Shown piece by piece: positions 23,456-34,532 of a stretch of 34,582 nt of DNA; position 1 is the first letter of the stretch, and the number at the start of each line of letters is the position of its first letter. The position numbers and the translations under genes are program-made. The DNA is from a virus. Location of the stretch: the UHGV virus genome UHGV-0129090, one strand, 5' to 3'. The notes under the pieces were generated by a model. That model was not told the origin of the DNA, searched no databases, and saw nothing but the letters and a program-made list of their open reading frames with translations.

Positions 23456-23743
23456 TTTTGATTGATTGGTATTTTCTATCTATTTCGGTACTGATAGATT
23501 TTATCTATAGATTTGTTTGTTTTATGTAAAATTTCTCACGTATTTTTATTATAACTCGCGGCCAAACTTCGCATAGTTTGGCCTATTCAGGAGAACCTAC
23601 CTAAAGTCAAGGGAGTGATTCCATTTTTTTATCTTTTATTTAATATAAAGCACAAATTGCACAAAATCTTGATAGCTTTTACATATCAGTACCGAAGTAT
23701 ACCATCATTCTATTATTCACTGTTTATGCATTGTCTATGCAAT

Positions 23744-25630: not shown

Positions 25631-26017
25631 TTATTTTATTTTAACGCAGTTTTGAAAGTAGTAATTACGAGTATCAGATCTCAATAAGAAGATAAAAGTA
25701 ATATCGTTTTGCTCTTTACTTCCCATTGTTGCAAGGAAGTATCGCTGCCTATCATTATCATAAGCCATTGTCATTGAATCATTAGATTCTATTGGTCCGG
25801 TGGCGTGAGTCATTGCACCGAAGTTAAGGATAAAACCATCACTATTAACTTTAGCGTGACCTGCACCAGAATAAGAAGATTTTTCTACTGGAGTATCACC
25901 CAGCATTTCAACTACTTTCACATCACATTGATACAATCCCTGCTCTGGTAGAGAGTGAGTGTTAGCCAGTACCGAAGGAGCTACTAACAGTAATGCAGAT
26001 ACGATAACCTTTTTCAT
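25631..26017 (-). CDS. Secreted/periplasmic protein with N-terminal signal peptide (paralog A)
   Basis: MKKVIVSALLLVAPSVLA signal sequence; two Cys; paralogous to 26027-26407. Confidence 0.55.
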   Translation of the reverse strand: MKKVIVSALLLVAPSVLANTHSLPEQGLYQCDVKVVEMLGDTPVEKSSYSGAGHAKVNSDGFILNFGAMTHATGPIESNDSMTMAYDNDRQRYFLATMGSKEQNDITFIFLLRSDTRNYYFQNCVKIK

Positions 26018-26026
26018 TTCTATTCC

Positions 26027-26407
26027 TTATTCAATAATACAATTGGAGAAGTTCAAAAATACGGGATTATTCTCATTGCTGACCATATACTGTGTTTTAC
26101 CATCGATTGCACTAATAATAATATCGTACTGGTCAGTATCTACGGCATAGGCCATCAGGCGACCGCTTTTAAGTTTTGAAACAGGGCTGAATGAAATATT
26201 CACATCCCTAAACTTCACACTAACAGCACGGTTATCAATACTCACATAACCAGTCATACCATAATAACCAGTCTTTACTACTCGCTTTCCTACCTGTTCC
26301 CACGATTCAACACCGCAACGATACAGACCATCATCAGGGAGTATTACATTTACTGCCAGTACCGAAGGGGCTACTAACAGTAATGCAGACAGTACAATCT
26401 TTTTCAT
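26027..26407 (-). CDS. Secreted/periplasmic protein with N-terminal signal peptide (paralog B; track ORF 26027-26419)
   Basis: MKKIVLSALLLVAPSVLA signal sequence nearly identical to paralog A at nucleotide level; shared LP-x-x-GLY-x-C and NC-[VI] motifs. Confidence 0.55.
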   Translation of the reverse strand: MKKIVLSALLLVAPSVLAVNVILPDDGLYRCGVESWEQVGKRVVKTGYYGMTGYVSIDNRAVSVKFRDVNISFSPVSKLKSGRLMAYAVDTDQYDIIISAIDGKTQYMVSNENNPVFLNFSNCIIE

Positions 26408-26586
26408 AAATTCATCCATTCGGGATTATCTACTTTATCAGAATCAATGGCATTGTTGATGCCAGATAATGACAGTGTTTTTGATTACGGCGACTGCAAT
26501 TTAATAAGTAGGGTTAATGTATTTTATTATATCATAGTAATATGCAGTCCCCATAACTAAAAGTACGGCAAATATTGTTTTCTTCA

Positions 26587-26967
26587 TCACAGATTATCGT
26601 CTATATAATTAGTTGGTTTCGAGAACTCAAATTCTGTACCGTAATTATTTGAACGATCAACTATCTTAGTGGTGTTTTTGTGGGGGCCGTGGGCTTTATG
26701 TTCTTCGAAGCTATGAATATTTGTAAGTCGGTCGGCGGCAATAATACAGCTACCAGTAGATGGGCGTTCTTCACCCAATAGCATAGGCTGACAATCACTA
26801 CTGAATTGTGGGCGATACTCTTTACCACCATTTACGGGGAATAATACTAGTGTACGACCGTTAATATCACCTACTACGGCTTCATTCATAAAAGCAGGCG
26901 TTATAGTAGTACAGCCAGTAGTGATTGTAGCCGTAGCGAGTACAGCTAGGGCAAAGAGATGTTTCAT
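26587..26967 (-). CDS. Putative lipoprotein
   Basis: MKHLFALAVLATATITTGC: signal peptide ending in a lipobox-like TTGC. Confidence 0.5.
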   Translation of the reverse strand: MKHLFALAVLATATITTGCTTITPAFMNEAVVGDINGRTLVLFPVNGGKEYRPQFSSDCQPMLLGEERPSTGSCIIAADRLTNIHSFEEHKAHGPHKNTTKIVDRSNNYGTEFEFSKPTNYIDDNL

Positions 26968-27075
26968 TAGTAAATCCTTGTAGTGATTGTGTGGAGTGAT
27001 GCTTGATGTGAATTATTATAGCTATGATATTTAGTAATAGCTACTACTTTATTTGTGTAGTAGCTATTATTATTC

Positions 27076-27759
27076 TTATACTACCTTATAGGCTTTAGTA
27101 ACAAGCTCTTTGAAGTCTTGCTCGTCGGCCTGTTTAGGATACTGCTGCTTGTACTCGGCGTAGTATTCTTGTGCTTTCGCGTTCATCTTCCCTTTCTGGT
27201 TTAGATGGAACTCATGACCGTTCCACTTCGCATTAAGCGGGTATTTTTTGCGATAGTCCTCACTATACGCCCGTAAAAACTCGTCAACGTCCGATAGTTC
27301 GGGATTCTTCTTAACCAACTGAATGTATACTTCATCCTTGAGTAATGCCGCTGGTAACTTCTTATTGATTACATTATAGGTTCTTCTTTCGTCCTTCTTG
27401 CTATCAACTATGACTACTTCGAATATCTTATTACCGTTTGGCTTCGATGCTTTTTGTGGTATGGAAGCAGGAGAAGATACGGCAAGTGTAGAAAGCAGTT
27501 CCTCTACACTAGAGAAGCTACCAGACTCTTGTACAAGTGATTCTAATAGCTTCTTAGCTTCGTTTAGTCGCTCGGTACGTAGTGTGCTTACATAGTCCTT
27601 CACTTCGCCCAGGCGTTGAATAAGTGTATCTATATCTTCTTCGTTGACGTTTGCCAGTGCATTGCGGCCTGTTGCGTCGGCAGTCAACATACCTACATTA
27701 AAATCATCATTCAGAATCGTACTGATCATTTTTGCGGTAATGCTTTTAATGCTTCCCAT
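27076..27759 (-). CDS. Hypothetical protein (227 aa)
   Basis: Largest ORF of the early region; Lys/Glu-rich C-terminus; no confident motif. Confidence 0.45.
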   Translation of the reverse strand: MGSIKSITAKMISTILNDDFNVGMLTADATGRNALANVNEEDIDTLIQRLGEVKDYVSTLRTERLNEAKKLLESLVQESGSFSSVEELLSTLAVSSPASIPQKASKPNGNKIFEVVIVDSKKDERRTYNVINKKLPAALLKDEVYIQLVKKNPELSDVDEFLRAYSEDYRKKYPLNAKWNGHEFHLNQKGKMNAKAQEYYAEYKQQYPKQADEQDFKELVTKAYKVV

Positions 27760-27947
27760 AATACAGCCTCATTTGGTTTTAACAGTAACTGAGTACAATC
27801 GGTTAGTTTATCTAGATTTGCAAGTGGGATCTCCTTCAAAGTGTTTATCATCTCACTGGTAAGACCAAATTCACTTAGTAGATCTTCTTCGGAAAGTTTC
27901 CGTACTGTATCTATATAGAGCACGTTTAGCTCATTAAGATCATTCAT
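27726..27947 (-). CDS. Hypothetical small protein
   Basis: 73-aa ORF overlapping neighbours at both ends. Confidence 0.35.
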   Translation of the reverse strand: MNDLNELNVLYIDTVRKLSEEDLLSEFGLTSEMINTLKEIPLANLDKLTDCTQLLLKPNEAVLWEALKALPQK

Positions 27948-28228
27948 AGCTTAATGTTCACGCGTTTTCTAGTTAGTAAGTTCAATAGTGCTTCGTTATA
28001 GGTAGTGTGCCACGTCTTACCATCACTAAAAGGCTTATTGATGTGTCGGGGATGCTTAGACATAGTGACCGCCCCTACCTTTCGGTTGTGATCGTCGAAA
28101 ACTTCGGTTATAAGTCCACCAGCAATACAACTAATACGCATGTAAAGATCCCAGCAATGAAGAAAAAGAAATTTGCAGCCGCAAGGTAAGTAAAGGTTAA
28201 TTTTTTCATAGAGTGTCCATATTAACAC
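27944..28228 (-). CDS. Hypothetical small protein (start uncertain)
   Basis: 94-aa track ORF with several internal Met. Confidence 0.3.
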   Translation of the reverse strand: MLIWTLYEKINLYLPCGCKFLFLHCWDLYMRISCIAGGLITEVFDDHNRKVGAVTMSKHPRHINKPFSDGKTWHTTYNEALLNLLTRKRVNIKL

Positions 28229-28264
28229 TACCAGTATATTTCCGGTACTAGTAGTGTAAATTGA

Positions 28265-28558
28265 TTAATGTACGTTAGTAATTTCTTCGGATACTACTTC
28301 TAGTAATGAAGCGAAAGCACGTTCACCATCGAATCGGGCAATAGTGATCTTATCGGTTACACTCTTAGGTAGATTGATGTTCTTTTCCCAATGGAACAAG
28401 CCACCAGACATAAGAAACATACTGAATAATTCACGCTCATTATGACGGGAACTAATTACTACATGAAACATTCCCGTTACACGATTATCAATCTCGTTAA
28501 TCTTGAATCCTAAATCATGTGCCTTAATGATCAAATCAGTAGATACACCCTTAGACAT
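28265..28558 (-). CDS. Hypothetical protein, divergent from 28800-28982
   Basis: 97-aa ORF; upstream region contains promoter/operator-like elements. Confidence 0.4.
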   Translation of the reverse strand: MSKGVSTDLIIKAHDLGFKINEIDNRVTGMFHVVISSRHNERELFSMFLMSGGLFHWEKNINLPKSVTDKITIARFDGERAFASLLEVVSEEITNVH

Positions 28559-28654
28559 TTTCGATACTCCCTACGATTAGTAACAAGGTTATGATGACTA
28601 CAAATAGTACATGCTCTTTAGTGATAGTGAACGTCATGTTGTGTCCTCGTTGTA

Positions 28655-28686
28655 TTGACACCACTGATACTAGGATCATTAGTATC
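28655..28686 (+). promoter_or_regulatory. Candidate sigma70-type promoter (TTGACA -35) overlapped by palindrome GATACTA-N7-TAGTATC (operator-like)
   Basis: ttgaca at about 28655-28660; perfect 7-bp inverted repeat at about 28666-28686; sits in the divergent intergenic region. Confidence 0.35.
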
Positions 28687-28799
28687 TAACGTCAACACTA
28701 GTTACTAAAATAATTTATTAGTAGAAAACGCTTGATAGTAACTAACGGTAGTGTATACTGTCTTTATTGAAGCAAAACACTACTACGAAGGGATATATA

Positions 28800-28982
28800 A
28801 TGAATACAGTAACTTACTTAGAACGCGGTAACATCACTGATATCATGGTTAACGATGTATATATGGGGGCGGTAGTAAAAGGTGACGATAACAAATATCG
28901 TACCGTACATAAGAACAATGCAGAATCTGGTACGTTTACTGCTTTCCACTTCGCAGCGTACCATGTAGAAAAAGCAGTATGA
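28800..28982 (+). CDS. Hypothetical small protein (track ORF from alternative start at 28767; ATG at 28800 has a better ribosome-binding site)
   Basis: gaaggg about 8 nt upstream of ATG at 28800; one of only a few plus-strand genes; followed by terminator. Confidence 0.4.
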   Translation: MNTVTYLERGNITDIMVNDVYMGAVVKGDDNKYRTVHKNNAESGTFTAFHFAAYHVEKAV

Positions 28983-28993
28983 TAGAAACGATG

Positions 28994-29018
28994 AAGCCCA
29001 CATTAAGTGGGCTTTTTT
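28994..29018. terminator. Rho-independent terminator (bidirectional, between convergent genes)
   Basis: Stem aagcccac / gtgggctt with loop attaa, then tttttt. Confidence 0.65.
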
Positions 29019-29840: not shown

Positions 29841-30149
29841 TTTTTCTTTTTCCTTATTGATAGTTAATTATTCGGTACTGTCGCCGCCCGTTCCACTCCG
29901 TCGCCGCGTCCAACTCACAAAATATATGAGGAAGCACTTTGATAGTAGTAATGAGAACTACACCTACTGGATCGAGCAAAGCGAAGGGAGAACGCTTGCG
30001 GGATTCCGTAGCGATAGCGAGGAAAACGCAATGTTAGGTGTAATAATTAAATAATTTCAAAGACTCGCTCTGTCGAGGCTTTCTAATTACTTAACTATTT
30101 CTTCCTGTTCTATTAAGACATACTAAAATGAAAAATTATATTATATTAA

Positions 30150-30320
30150 GGGGGGCTAATGCACCAATCGCCCATAAAATTTCAAATCCATTTCAGAAAA
30201 GCCTGTAATATCAAGGGTTTGCGGCCTATTTTGCGTGTGGGTTAATCCCATTAGCCCATACAAATCAATCCCAATAGCCCATAATTAGCATATATGTATG
30301 GGCTAATAGGGGCTAATGGT
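30150..30320. repeat. Cluster of short repeats (GGGCTAAT / ATTAGCCC and AATCCCAWTAGCCCATA) in a non-coding region
   Basis: GGGCTAAT at about 30153, 30300 and 30310; reverse-complement copies at about 30250 and 30274; 17-bp direct repeat at about 30244-30260 and 30267-30282. Confidence 0.5.
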
Positions 30321-30321
30321 A

Positions 30322-30885: not shown

Positions 30886-31491
30886 TTATTTCTTGAATAG
30901 TGCCTGTACTTTGAATACTAAATCAGAAGGTACTTTTTGTAGTTCTTCTTGATAGGTTTTACCGCGAAGTAGTTCCATGTATACCTTACGACTAGTAGAA
31001 CGGTTGAATGTACTATTCAACGAGTAAGTTAGATCATCCAAAAGTACATTGCCATTAGTACCGAAGACGCTATACGCATGTAAGTAGATATCATGTATTA
31101 GTTCTACATCAAACTTATCTTGCATTGGTTTACGCTTACTAATACTGTATTTTACATTAGTGCTATGTGCCGTCCATTCGATGTTACTTACTTCGTTATT
31201 ATGCTTATCTTCATCAATATGATTGATAACTACATTTTTGTACTTCTTAGTAAGCCTTAAATATTCCTTACTATCAAATGTAGATCCCATCATGCGATGC
31301 ACTGCATGTTTATATGATTGATATTCATTATTAGTACGAAGATCAATCCATTTCTTTTTCTTTGAGTCGTATACTTCGGCATTCTTACTAATCCAGACAT
31401 CATCTACATAGTGTATAGTATTGTCGGTATTGTTATTGATCTTTGCTTTATATAAAGTAACTAGTACATTATTTTCATTTAGTTTTCTCAT
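30886..31491 (-). CDS. HNH endonuclease
   Basis: INHIDEDKHNNEVSNIEWTAHSTN matches the His...Asn...Asn-Leu/Ile-x-Trp core of HNH nucleases. Confidence 0.6.
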   Translation of the reverse strand: MRKLNENNVLVTLYKAKINNNTDNTIHYVDDVWISKNAEVYDSKKKKWIDLRTNNEYQSYKHAVHRMMGSTFDSKEYLRLTKKYKNVVINHIDEDKHNNEVSNIEWTAHSTNVKYSISKRKPMQDKFDVELIHDIYLHAYSVFGTNGNVLLDDLTYSLNSTFNRSTSRKVYMELLRGKTYQEELQKVPSDLVFKVQALFKK

Positions 31492-31561: not shown

Positions 31562-31714
31562 TTAGTTAGAAGAAAGTACCGCGTGTTTATTGATTAGATA
31601 CTGTATTGCAGCACTACGCGTTTTCGCTTTTCCTTCGGTAATTAGTTTATCAAGTACATCGGCTTGGGCTTCAGATACTCGCACACCAATACTAATTGAT
31701 TTGTTTTCTTTCAT
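31562..31714 (-). CDS. Ribbon-helix-helix (Arc/CopG-like) DNA-binding protein; short ORF absent from the supplied track
   Basis: My translation: MKENKSISIGVRVSEAQADVLDKLITEGKAKTRSAAIQYLINKHAVLSSN; strand-helix-helix pattern; aaggaag ribosome-binding site about 6 nt upstream of ATG. Confidence 0.55.
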   Translation of the reverse strand: MKENKSISIGVRVSEAQADVLDKLITEGKAKTRSAAIQYLINKHAVLSSN

Positions 31715-31765
31715 ATAGCTTCCTTTTTTGTTGAACAAATTGCTAAAAATTAAATCCGAAAATAT

Positions 31766-32205: not shown

Positions 32206-33804
32206 TCACTTCCTACTGTCAATCATTGTAGTAGCTAATGCCATTGCACCATCTACTACATTCTTCCAATACTCTAAAGCATCATCATCAAGATCACCAG
32301 ACAACGTACCATCTAGACTAAGACTACTAACAGATCTTAGAGTAGTAGTTAGTGTATTAGTACCACCAGTACCAGTACGCTGTATATCTACATCAATAAT
32401 CACTAGATGGCTTAGTGCATCAGACCAATACTTGATAGTACAGTATATGGTGTACTTAGACTTGCTTACATCTTCCCGTACTATGTTTATGTGCTGTATT
32501 AGCTTCTTAATGCGGTTGTTTAGTTCGATGCGATAGTTAGTATCTAAATCTAACTTATCATCATCAAAGGTTAGCTGTATATCCTTCGGTACGTCTACTG
32601 ATTTTAGGCGTATAGTCAATTCTTCCTGTTCGCGGTTCATGATCTCTAATTCATCCAGTATCGCAAACTTTTCATGCCTACTAGCTTTATTAAGACGTTC
32701 ACGGAACGCGGCAATATCCCTTTCGTTCTGAATCCACTGATCACGCAATGTTAGTACGTTATTATCTTCATGTTTATATACTTCACTGAAATCTAATCCA
32801 CGAATCGCCGTTAGTAATGGGCGTTCTAATGCGTTATATGCAATGCTACGGGCTTCACACGTTTTATTAGTACGTTTACCTAAGCAGACTGTAAAAAGAT
32901 TACCGTGGCTGTTACGCTTCACTATAATTGATTGATTGCATACTGGACACCGTGACATACCCGAAAATATATTGAGCATGTTTTTTTGGTGAGTATTACC
33001 CTTTTTGTTGGTGCTGGCTTTTAATGCCTGTACGCGGTCGTATAGGTCTTTATCAATTATTGGTGGATAACGTGCATCATCGGCAACTCGTTTATCACTA
33101 AGAGCACGTAATACGGTTACTAGTGTCCACGGCTTACCATTATCAGTATTGCCATAAGTACGGACAATCTGAGCCGCACCAATGCCATTAATATAATCAT
33201 TATACATACGCTGGATCGCCTTTGCTGTATCATTTGTACGGTACTGTTTCACGCCGTCTAGCTCTACTACATCAAACCATCGAGGCCGCACCTTTGATAC
33301 TTTTCCGTAGCGGTTGGCGTGTGACTTCTGCATCATTATACTTTTGCGTTTTGACTCCCCGTTAGCACGGTTTATTTGTATTGTAAGCACACTTAAACTT
33401 TCTGGAATATAACGCGAATACGTCATTCCTGTCTCAATCTCTAGGATAGTAGTACCACGGTTAATTAGACCGGATATGATTTCTACTGCCTGAAATGGAT
33501 CAAGACGTGTAAGGCGGTCGATGTTCTCTACGATTAGTACAGAATCATTGATCACACCGTCCATAACCATCTTTCGGTACTTGCCTAAGAGTGTTTTTTC
33601 ATTCCAGTTCTTCCCACGGAACGCCGATTTACCCTCTGCTACCATCTGCGTTATGTTCTCGGTATCGAGCGTAAAAGGTAGTCGATGGTCTAATACAACA
33701 TACTGTAAAAACTGATTGATTGTGTTTACCTGCCTTTGAATACCAAAGCCGTCAACCTGCTTGAGCGTTGAGATACGGGCATAACACCATACGGGCACTT
33801 TCAT
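32206..33804 (-). CDS. Large serine recombinase (phage integrase)
   Basis: N-terminal resolvase-type catalytic region YARISTLKQ and VENIDRLTR, followed by a large C-terminal domain with a Cys cluster (CPVCN...C...C); GGAGGT ribosome-binding site; start about 40 bp from attR. Confidence 0.85.
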   Translation of the reverse strand: MKVPVWCYARISTLKQVDGFGIQRQVNTINQFLQYVVLDHRLPFTLDTENITQMVAEGKSAFRGKNWNEKTLLGKYRKMVMDGVINDSVLIVENIDRLTRLDPFQAVEIISGLINRGTTILEIETGMTYSRYIPESLSVLTIQINRANGESKRKSIMMQKSHANRYGKVSKVRPRWFDVVELDGVKQYRTNDTAKAIQRMYNDYINGIGAAQIVRTYGNTDNGKPWTLVTVLRALSDKRVADDARYPPIIDKDLYDRVQALKASTNKKGNTHQKNMLNIFSGMSRCPVCNQSIIVKRNSHGNLFTVCLGKRTNKTCEARSIAYNALERPLLTAIRGLDFSEVYKHEDNNVLTLRDQWIQNERDIAAFRERLNKASRHEKFAILDELEIMNREQEELTIRLKSVDVPKDIQLTFDDDKLDLDTNYRIELNNRIKKLIQHINIVREDVSKSKYTIYCTIKYWSDALSHLVIIDVDIQRTGTGGTNTLTTTLRSVSSLSLDGTLSGDLDDDALEYWKNVVDGAMALATTMIDSRK

Positions 33805-33844
33805 CTACTTACCTCCATTCACTGTGGTGTACATCCTATCACAA

Positions 33845-33850
33845 CTGTTC
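33845..33850. repeat. attR core (ctgttc) at right prophage/host junction
   Basis: Same hexamer as 667-672; host frame resumes here; phage arm gtggtgtacat (33824-33834) mirrors atgtacgccac (687-697) across the core. Confidence 0.7.
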
Positions 33851-34532
33851 ATTGCTGCTGATGGGGCCGCAGTGGCGTTCGCGTCTCGATCGTGAAGCCA
33901 GCCTGCTGGGTCACAGTGGTTGCCGTATTGGCGGTAACGATCTGGATATCGCGCTGGCGTTTAAAAACCTGATGCCGTTACTGGGCATGGGTGGCGAAAC
34001 CGAAAAAGGCATCGCCCTGCCGATTCTGCCGTGGTGGAATGCGGTTGCCATCAACGACGTTCCTGCACAGAGTGATTTCTACAGTAGTGCCAACGGTCGT
34101 CTGCTTAACGATCTGGTACGCGATGCCCGCGAACCGGAAAAAGTGGCCCTGTTACAGAAAGTCTGGCGTCAGCGTTTAAGCTATCGCCTGGTGCGTAGCG
34201 CAGAAGAGAGCAAAATCGCCCTTTCAAGCACTGCGGAAACCCGCGCCTCACTGCCGTTTATCAGCGATGAACTGGCTACGCTGATTAGCCAGCAAGGGCT
34301 GGAAAGCGCCCTCAGCCAGCCACTGGCGCGGATTCTGGAACAGGTGCAACTGGCGCTGGATAACGCCCAGGAAAAACCGGACGTTATCTACCTGACCGGC
34401 GGTAGCGCCCGTTCGCCGCTGATTAAAAAAGCGCTGGCAGAACAGTTGCCGGGCATTCCGATTGCAGGCGGCGATGACTTTGGCTCCGTCACCGCCGGGC
34501 TGGCACGCTGGGCAGAAGTGGTATTTCGTTAA
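33845..34532 (+). CDS. yegD: Host YegD, 3' fragment continuing the interrupted gene (track ORF 33768-34532 includes a phage-derived 5' extension)
   Basis: GC-rich; begins CSLLLMGPQW exactly where the left fragment ends; ends LTGGSARSPLIKKALAEQLPGIPIAGGDDFGSVTAGLARWAEVVFR. Confidence 0.85.

Follow-up and report, generated by a model that had tools for sequence, protein, structure and literature searches.

Positions 28559-28799 of the 34,582-nucleotide stretch of virus DNA analysed here (the window) probably form a genuine control region, the working parts of which are two back-to-back promoters and a repeated 9-bp box, TAGYTACTA, and not the palindrome to which an earlier note had drawn attention. 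That note had described the segment as a divergent control region. Back-to-back promoter-like sites overlapped by dyad boxes were indeed identified, and this layout recurs at ~46% protein identity; the segment is not intergenic throughout, however, as a 28-aa open reading frame (ORF) lies inside it. We regard it as a box-regulated divergent promoter region, for which the interpretation as an immunity switch is supported only in part. The sequence elements, their enrichment, their bias towards intergenic DNA and the conservation of their positions are observed, whereas we infer that the promoters are active, that a protein binds to the boxes and that it acts as a repressor.

Genomic setting

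The window holds a prophage of ~33 kb with a GC content of 39%, which is inserted within the E. coli gene yegD (Table 1). Nearly all prophage genes are located on the minus strand, and the early proteins are almost all orphans. No DNA match to the window was found in 50,697 phage records by near and distant search modes, and the identity of its large terminase to these records does not exceed 37%. The prophage is rare: of 5,426 complete E. coli genomes, two have a closely related one, likewise located in yegD. Nothing relevant to a prophage in yegD was found in the literature.

Searches of the phage proteins against Pfam, PHROGs and NCBIfam revealed no recognisable CI. Matches of a DNA-binding type were limited to a weak one to RHH and one to an HTH, the latter in the small terminase subunit, so the earlier characterisation of the phage as lacking an obvious CI holds true. 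LexA boxes are absent: one-mismatch matches numbered four, versus 11.9 expected, and none was located in the divergent region. No Rfam family was matched at gathering score; the divergent region gave a sub-threshold Trp-leader match (E 0.85).

Table 1. Positions of the features discussed in the text, given in window coordinates
Feature	Position	Strand	Remarks
yegD, two halves	2-676 and 33768-34532		Split by the prophage
Box pair, TAGTTACTA twice	3161-3189		Exact; 20 bp apart; adjoins -10-like TAAAAT, upstream of a holin-like 88-aa gene
Inverted box pair, TAGCTACTA / TAGTAGCTA	27038-27066		Exact; starts 20 bp apart; between the p227 gene and the 126-aa gene
p227 gene	27076-27759	-	227-aa orphan; predicted coiled-coil N-terminal part (weak coiled-coil PDB match)
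p97 gene	28265-28558	-	97 aa; second gene of the leftward unit; orphan; alpha-beta4-alpha fold
28-aa hydrophobic peptide ORF (MTFTITKEHVLFVVIITLLLIVGSIENV)	28551-28637	-	Unannotated; RBS GAGGA at 28648-28644
TTGACA	28655-28660	+	About +1 to +6 of the predicted leftward transcript
Palindrome GATACTA-N7-TAGTATC	28666-28686		Arms 28666-28672 and 28680-28686; GATC at the centre
P_L (predicted)	28667-28695	-	TTGACG (28695-28690)-17-TAGTAT (28672-28667); 9 of 12 consensus matches
Box 1, TAGTATCTA	28680-28688		1 mismatch; within the P_L spacer; exact TAGTTACTA here in L008 and L013
Box 2, TAGTTACTA	28699-28707		Exact; directly upstream of the P_L -35
Box 3, TAGTAGAAA	28719-28727		2 mismatches, weak; holds the ~19-20 bp register
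Box 4, TAGTAACTA	28736-28744		Exact; overlaps the -35 and spacer of P_R
P_R (predicted)	28732-28759	+	TTGATA-16-TATACT; 10 of 12 consensus matches; best site in the 3.5 kb scanned
p60 gene	28800-28982	+	60 aa; no other plus-strand gene nearby in the prophage; orphan
Bidirectional intrinsic terminator	28993-29015		Ends both the p60 cassette and the minus-strand operon upstream
Small RHH protein gene	31562-31738		Weak RHH_1 match; 2.8 kb away, behind its own promoter
Large serine recombinase gene	32206-33804	-	Right end of the prophage

The yegD junctions (660-700 and 33800-33860) have the common core ACTGTTC (GACTGTTCG on the left and AACTGTTCA on the right), which fits a short crossover site for the adjoining large serine recombinase. 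Relatives L007 and L008-L011 are also inserted in yegD. The Enterobacter relative L005 adjoins a PHP-domain gene, and its recombinase, of 597 aa, differs.

Two putative homing-endonuclease genes occur in the 33-kb prophage, at 1909-2397 (-) and 30886-31491 (-); one product is SegE-like GIY-YIG (Pfam E 2.6e-16) and the other is HNH-like (PHROG HNH E 1e-10). Split genes for a SAM-dependent methyltransferase take their place in the early region of L002. Adjacent paralogues of 128 and 130 aa with near-identical signal peptides (SALLLVAPSVLA) are encoded at 25631-26419 (-) and are followed by a gene for a 126-aa lipoprotein (26587-26967); the three proteins resemble prophage cargo that is secreted or destined for the envelope.

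Additional repeats were detected in intergenic DNA. The 480-bp gap at 29841-30321 contains iteron-like words in both orientations (GGGCTAAT, CCCATTAGCCCATA, CCCAATAGCCCATAAT and ATGGGCTAATAGGGGCTAATGG; 30150-30320), which could be a replication origin or some other protein-binding array. A second repeated word, TTCGGTACTG (with close variants), is present at 23485, 23690 (reverse complement), 28241, 29040 and 29875, in or near several intergenic regions. One copy lies upstream of the small terminase gene, where it is surrounded by GATAGAT/CTATCTAT repeats (23470-23520); these are reminiscent of terminase-binding or cos-type repeats.

Predicted divergent promoters and leftward transcription unit

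The non-coding part of the region comprises the 162 bp between the start of the small-peptide ORF (28637) and that of the 60-aa gene (28800), while the left third of the flagged segment is coding. The two promoter-like sites, P_L and P_R, are consensus matches, and the scan that returned them gave 11 sites in total versus 10.9 in shuffled sequences. The P_L site recurs in relative L008 and, by eye, reads TTGACT-17-TAGTAT in L013. The P_L block is the best-conserved non-coding stretch between the window and L008 (76% identity, versus 40% for the P_R core). Equivalents of P_R were recognised by eye in L003 (TTGCAC-16-TATAAT) and L005 (TTGCAT-16-TATACT). Hairpins equivalent to the terminator at 28993-29015 follow p60 in L003, L007, L008 and L016.

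The leftward unit begins with the 28-aa peptide, the stop codon of which overlaps the ATG of p97. The ORF is retained as a peptide in L001, L002, L003, L005 and L008, and its comparison between the window and L008 gave pN 0.047 and pS 0.40. In L008-type and Enterobacter prophages, the peptide is 22 aa long (MTFTITKEHV... versus MAITITKEHV...). Relative L045 encodes a 17-aa analogue behind a similar promoter. Both flanking ORFs, p97 and p60, have homologues and are under purifying selection, and both are annotated as coding sequences in a 96% identical RefSeq prophage.

A small hydrophobic ORF of 33 aa (28209..28108, minus strand) is located directly downstream of p97. It is preceded by the promoter-like TTTACA-16-TATACT (28260-28233) and by an inverted repeat with 16-bp arms, rich in CTACTA/TAGTAG (28221-28236 / 28246-28261). 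This arrangement suggests another promoter plus membrane-peptide module at 28108-28261. Further along, the listed 94-aa GTG-start ORF at 27944-28141 (-) is probably a 65-aa gene starting at MRISCIAGGLITEV, of which L046 has a clear 67-aa homologue (MRLNIIAGGLITEVYDD...). Neither this ORF nor a 73-aa ORF at 27726-27947 is called in the RefSeq annotation of L001.

The flagged palindrome

All sequence elements singled out in the earlier note are present. The perfect palindrome is not above chance. With perfect 7-bp arms and spacers of 3-12 nt, 51 palindromes were counted in the window (0.36 in every 241 bp on average), and one or more arose in 17% of the shuffled versions of the 241-bp region. 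The left arm of the flagged palindrome is the leftward -10 (ATACTA, complementary to TAGTAT of the minus strand), and the right one is the degenerate box 1. In L008 and L013, the right arm has turned into the consensus box TAGTTACTA and the palindrome is gone.

The TTGACA hexamer has no properly spaced -10 (TAGTAT is 19 nt off and ATTAGT 17 nt off), is not among the sites reported by the promoter scan, and reads ATGACA in L008 and L013. A TTGACA promoter overlapped by the palindrome, as had been proposed, is not the conserved unit. The second inverted pair reported further downstream does exist, as boxes 2 and 4, but each of its members is a copy of one and the same 9-bp box. The palindrome bears a loose likeness to a Fur-like or other host-factor site; this candidate was rejected because the spacing does not fit.

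The TAGYTACTA box

The box is near-palindromic, and both TAGTTACTA and TAGTAACTA are copies of it. The window contains nine exact copies, a number not attained in any of 100 shuffles (expectation 1.58 ± 1.26); these counts should be read in the light of an AT-rich genome in which TA-rich words are common. Intergenic DNA makes up 7.3% of the window but contains six of the nine (binomial p=1e-5), arranged in pairs at 3161/3181, 27038/27058, and 28699/28736. The same core emerged from an unbiased k-mer count in the divergent regions of five distinct relatives: CTACTA occurred 18 times versus 2.06 expected and was present in all five loci, and AGTAGCTA occurred 11 times versus 0.22 expected.

The centres of the four boxes in the divergent region are spaced by 19, 20, and 17 bp. 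Since this is about two helical turns, all four should lie on one face of the DNA. Boxes 1 and 4 are inside the promoter spacers of P_L and P_R, respectively, and boxes 2 and 3 are between the two -35 hexamers. The pair at 27038/27058 is located upstream of a TATAAT (27020-27015, minus strand). A role of the boxes as RNA hairpins was rejected, as they are too short, with the exception of the inverted pair at 27038/27058.

The position of the boxes relative to the predicted -10 differs by site, being about -17/-37, -24/-43, and -34/-54, and this variable distance matches occlusion of the promoters only loosely. Also, some box-associated promoters combine a good -10 with a poor -35, which looks like an activator-dependent pattern. 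The boxes might accordingly be activator sites or promoter elements. An early protein, e.g. p97, which would be the first product of appreciable size from P_L, would bind boxes situated at or close to the -35 and turn on promoters with a good -10 but a poor -35, in the manner of T4 MotA at middle promoters, the divergent region being a positive autoregulatory node. The 27038/27058 boxes cover the -35 position (TAGCTA, 3/6) upstream of a perfect TATAAT; a box of the 3161/3181 pair abuts TAAAAT with a poor -35, as judged by eye; and relatives L021, L023, L029, and L030 have a single box directly against TATAAT or TAAAAT. At the divergent region itself, however, P_L and P_R have reasonable -35s of their own, and boxes within spacers would be an unusual place for an activator. 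Nor does p97 fit the part well. Its resemblance to MotA is weak and ranked under generic RWD-fold matches, Foldseek returned nothing for its structure, the protein is acidic, and the 8.7 kb retrieved for the box-bearing L045 encode no homologue of p97. Activation through the boxes, the main rival to repression, is rather unlikely in our judgement.

Conservation of the box array in related prophages

The most informative relatives are L003 and L005, prophages of Enterobacter kobei and E. hormaechei, whose flanking proteins share 45-49% identity with those of the window. Both have three boxes 19 bp apart (centres 50/69/88) and, one step on, a two-mismatch fourth box in the P_R spacer. The latter, TAGCTAGTT, is the counterpart of box 4, and a box TAGTAGTAG is found at the register matching box 3. 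The inverted box pair recurs, too, at the equivalent intergenic site (7353/7376), flanked by the genes homologous to those for p227 and the 126-aa protein. Otherwise, the non-coding sequence around the Enterobacter boxes cannot be aligned with that of the window. The strongest case for a function of the boxes is that their positions have been conserved over such divergence.

Other relatives retain parts of this arrangement. The L008/L013 lineage has an exact box in the P_L spacer alone. L045 and L046 were located by a profile search with the 227-aa protein. The former has a box pair overlapping TTTACA-17-TATGAT ahead of the ORF for its 17-aa membrane peptide, and the latter has a 12-bp palindrome, TAGTAGCTACTA, between two genes. 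Boxes at the 3161/3181 site occur in few relatives (two in L018 and one each in L021 and L023); the majority of relatives have a short, box-free spacer there. L001, L002, and L012 are nearly identical to the window in the divergent region through recent common descent and, being too close, are uninformative with regard to constraint.

These comparisons bear on the view that there is no dedicated regulation at all, the palindrome and boxes being by-products of AT-/TA-rich sequence or of ancestry, and the promoters being constitutive, one of them a moron's. Such a view accommodates a palindrome at chance level, promoter-like sites no commoner than in shuffles, and the near-identity of the three closest relatives. 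It does not accommodate the six-fold over-representation of exact boxes and their concentration in intergenic DNA, the pairing of boxes 19-20 bp apart at three sites, or the recurrence of both the array and the second pair at matching positions in the Enterobacter prophages, where the non-coding surroundings are unalignable. We consider it highly improbable.

The 60-aa gene

Among its relatives, p60 displays 78-88% identity, versus 35-67% for the neighbouring proteins and 37-45% for the terminase. Its dN/dS values are 0.08-0.15 and its synonymous sites are near-saturated, with the window and L008 differing at 52% of them. High protein identity together with saturated synonymous sites points to long-term constraint and not to recent transfer. 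The AF2 model of p60 is an all-beta meander (pLDDT 68), and the net charge from a sequence count is about -1. The search for similar folds gave no significant match; OspA-type single-layer sheets were the only structures retrieved (E>0.3), which is uninformative. No match was obtained in Pfam, PHROG, NCBIfam or PADLOC. An exhaustive HMMER search of 1.84 billion representatives revealed two real relatives, P0002 and P0009; two long repeat proteins also retrieved were rejected as spurious, since they match via a 'GEKNQYRTVNWNN' repeat. A scan of one genome per species yielded no p60.

The gene is present in L003-L015. In L045 and L046, the early DNA retrieved ahead of the p227 homologue encodes neither p60 nor any other protein in reverse orientation, and all early genes are co-directional. 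L016 and L017 encode p60 homologues of 61% identity, which are co-directional with their neighbours in a different phage background. The unit there consists of a terminator, the promoter-like TTGACT-17-TATATT, the gene, and a second terminator, and contains no boxes. The presence of boxes without p60 in L045 and L046, and the reverse in L016 and L017, indicate that the boxes, the leftward promoter, and the membrane peptide form a module independent of p60. In its organisation, p60 behaves as a presumptive mobile accessory cassette of promoter, gene and terminator.

In L016 (2940-3000) and L017 (1281-1341), the -10 region of the strong promoter-like site TTGACT-17-TATATT is overlapped by GGTATA-N7-TATACC, which may be an operator of different specificity.

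If the region were an immunity switch proper, p60 would be an all-beta repressor made in the lysogen, which shuts P_L and the other box promoters and autoregulates P_R, and the leftward genes would start the lytic programme. The divergent layout and the failure to find a CI-like repressor speak for the earlier proposal of a candidate immunity region. p60 is the sole reverse gene here, has its own promoter and terminator with a box inside the promoter spacer, and is the most conserved protein of the region, its dN/dS of about 0.1 being what a tie to a conserved DNA motif would fit. This picture is countered by the phyletic pattern, which weakens p60 as a box binder: boxes occur without p60 in L045 and L046, and p60 without boxes in L016 and L017. 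Moreover, boxes are also present elsewhere in the genome, neither flanking protein has a DNA-binding fold, p60 itself is a flat, slightly acidic beta-meander with no DNA-binding match, and the HMMER search left a tiny family besides the spurious repeat proteins. p60 is unlikely to be the box-binding protein, and a switch of this kind appears quite improbable.

Candidate box-binding proteins

Seven proteins (p60, p97, p73, p227, p174, p113, and p160) were examined and gave nothing significant in Pfam, PHROGs, NCBIfam, and PADLOC. Matches at E<=0.01 in this set were limited to those of p97 to phrog_6147 and of p113 to phrog_12674, both marginal and to families whose function is not known, and a sub-threshold Pfam match of p160 to a baculovirus family. 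A PDB sequence search returned spurious matches to designed armadillo and repeat proteins, along with a very weak resemblance of p73 to FlhD. No DNA-binding fold or family match was obtained for p60 and p97, the model of the latter being RWD-like and devoid of an HTH.

The small RHH protein was rejected as the box binder because its recognition strand varies between L003 (HQVGTKL) and L005 (ARISLRL) despite nearly identical box arrays. There is also no box upstream of its gene.

In its phyletic pattern alone, the 227-aa orphan p227 follows the boxes: each distinct lineage with boxes encodes it, as far as the retrieved DNA extends to its locus, and L016, which has no boxes, lacks it. Family and PDB searches gave no match for p227 other than the weak coiled-coil one. 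By eye, we take its N-terminus to resemble the H-NS oligomerisation region, a likeness that no tool supported. The C-terminal part is very conserved and Lys-rich (KNPEL...YSEDYR...P(I/L)NAKW..EFH).

Possibly, this low-GC, yegD-integrating lineage without an HTH repressor is ruled by a DNA-binding protein of a new kind, to which the dispersed boxes, two helical turns apart, would serve as cooperative pairs of sites. p227 or, less likely, p60 would then be that protein, and the array at 28680-28744 its main operator. We regard this proposal as unlikely. If true, it would make p227 or p60 a new class of phage repressor or regulator.

Proposed regulation

On balance, we lean towards a phage regulator that binds the array cooperatively, occludes both promoters, and governs a small regulon including the sites at 27038 and 3161. 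P_L is predicted to drive the 28-aa membrane peptide, p97, and genes further on in the leftward direction, and P_R to drive p60 rightward, up to the bidirectional terminator. A dimeric or oligomeric phage protein would bind the boxes cooperatively and block both promoters. Since paired boxes are also found at 27038/27058 and 3161/3181, such a protein would be a regulator of several transcription units and not a local switch. The p60 cassette would have been inserted against an older module of boxes, promoter, and membrane peptide and then wired into the same control.

The conserved box array offers a handle for finding the regulator and for mapping the transcription units of this phage. p60, as a tiny and strongly constrained cassette moving between phage backgrounds, is worth testing as a lysogen-expressed function.

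Comparison with known systems

In temperate phages, divergent promoter regions rich in operators are usual. In lambda OR, the promoters PR and PRM share the operators OR1-3, of 17 bp, which are bound by CI and Cro. The region described here is similar in that predicted divergent promoters are contained in one short region and dyad sites about two helical turns apart overlap the promoter cores, two of them (boxes 1 and 4) within spacers. Unlike in lambda, the sites are 9-bp boxes, are four in number and are also dispersed elsewhere in the genome, and neither flanking gene encodes an HTH protein. The position of the divergent HTH repressor gene is occupied by p60, with its all-beta model and no family match, and the first products of the opposite unit are the 28-aa peptide and then p97 instead of a Cro-like HTH protein. 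The rightward gene is also not kept family-wide, as L045 and L046 are devoid of it.

Dispersed operators are known from the P1 C1 repressor, with many scattered sites, and from mycobacteriophage L5 gp71, with its 'stoperators'; the sites number 17-30. The TAGYTACTA box resembles these as a short motif that occurs above chance at several intergenic sites, at or just upstream of the starts of transcription units. The differences are that six exact sites in three clusters were found here and that the boxes, in pairs spaced by ~20 bp, are near-palindromic, whereas L5 stoperators are asymmetric, single, and orientation-dependent.

At immI of P22, the RHH repressors Arc and Mnt act at the overlapping divergent promoters Pant and Pmnt. 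The prophage in yegD shares with it a compact pair of predicted divergent promoters, short putative operators, and a small RHH protein. Here, however, the RHH gene is 2.8 kb off, with its own promoter and no box upstream, and no RHH repressor with a recognition strand matching the operator was identified.

Morons of lambdoid and other temperate phages are autonomous promoter-gene-terminator insertions. p60 likewise has its own predicted promoter and terminator, as is also the case in L016 and L017, runs opposite to the operons around it, and has a patchy distribution that includes the same cassette in another phage background. It differs from typical morons in being more conserved than any nearby core gene and in having a promoter overlapped by phage boxes where it is reversed. 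As judged from this organisation, p60 is a moron in the structural definition of the term. No current idea is overturned by the region as a whole, which adds a new example of a familiar type of element in an unstudied prophage lineage.
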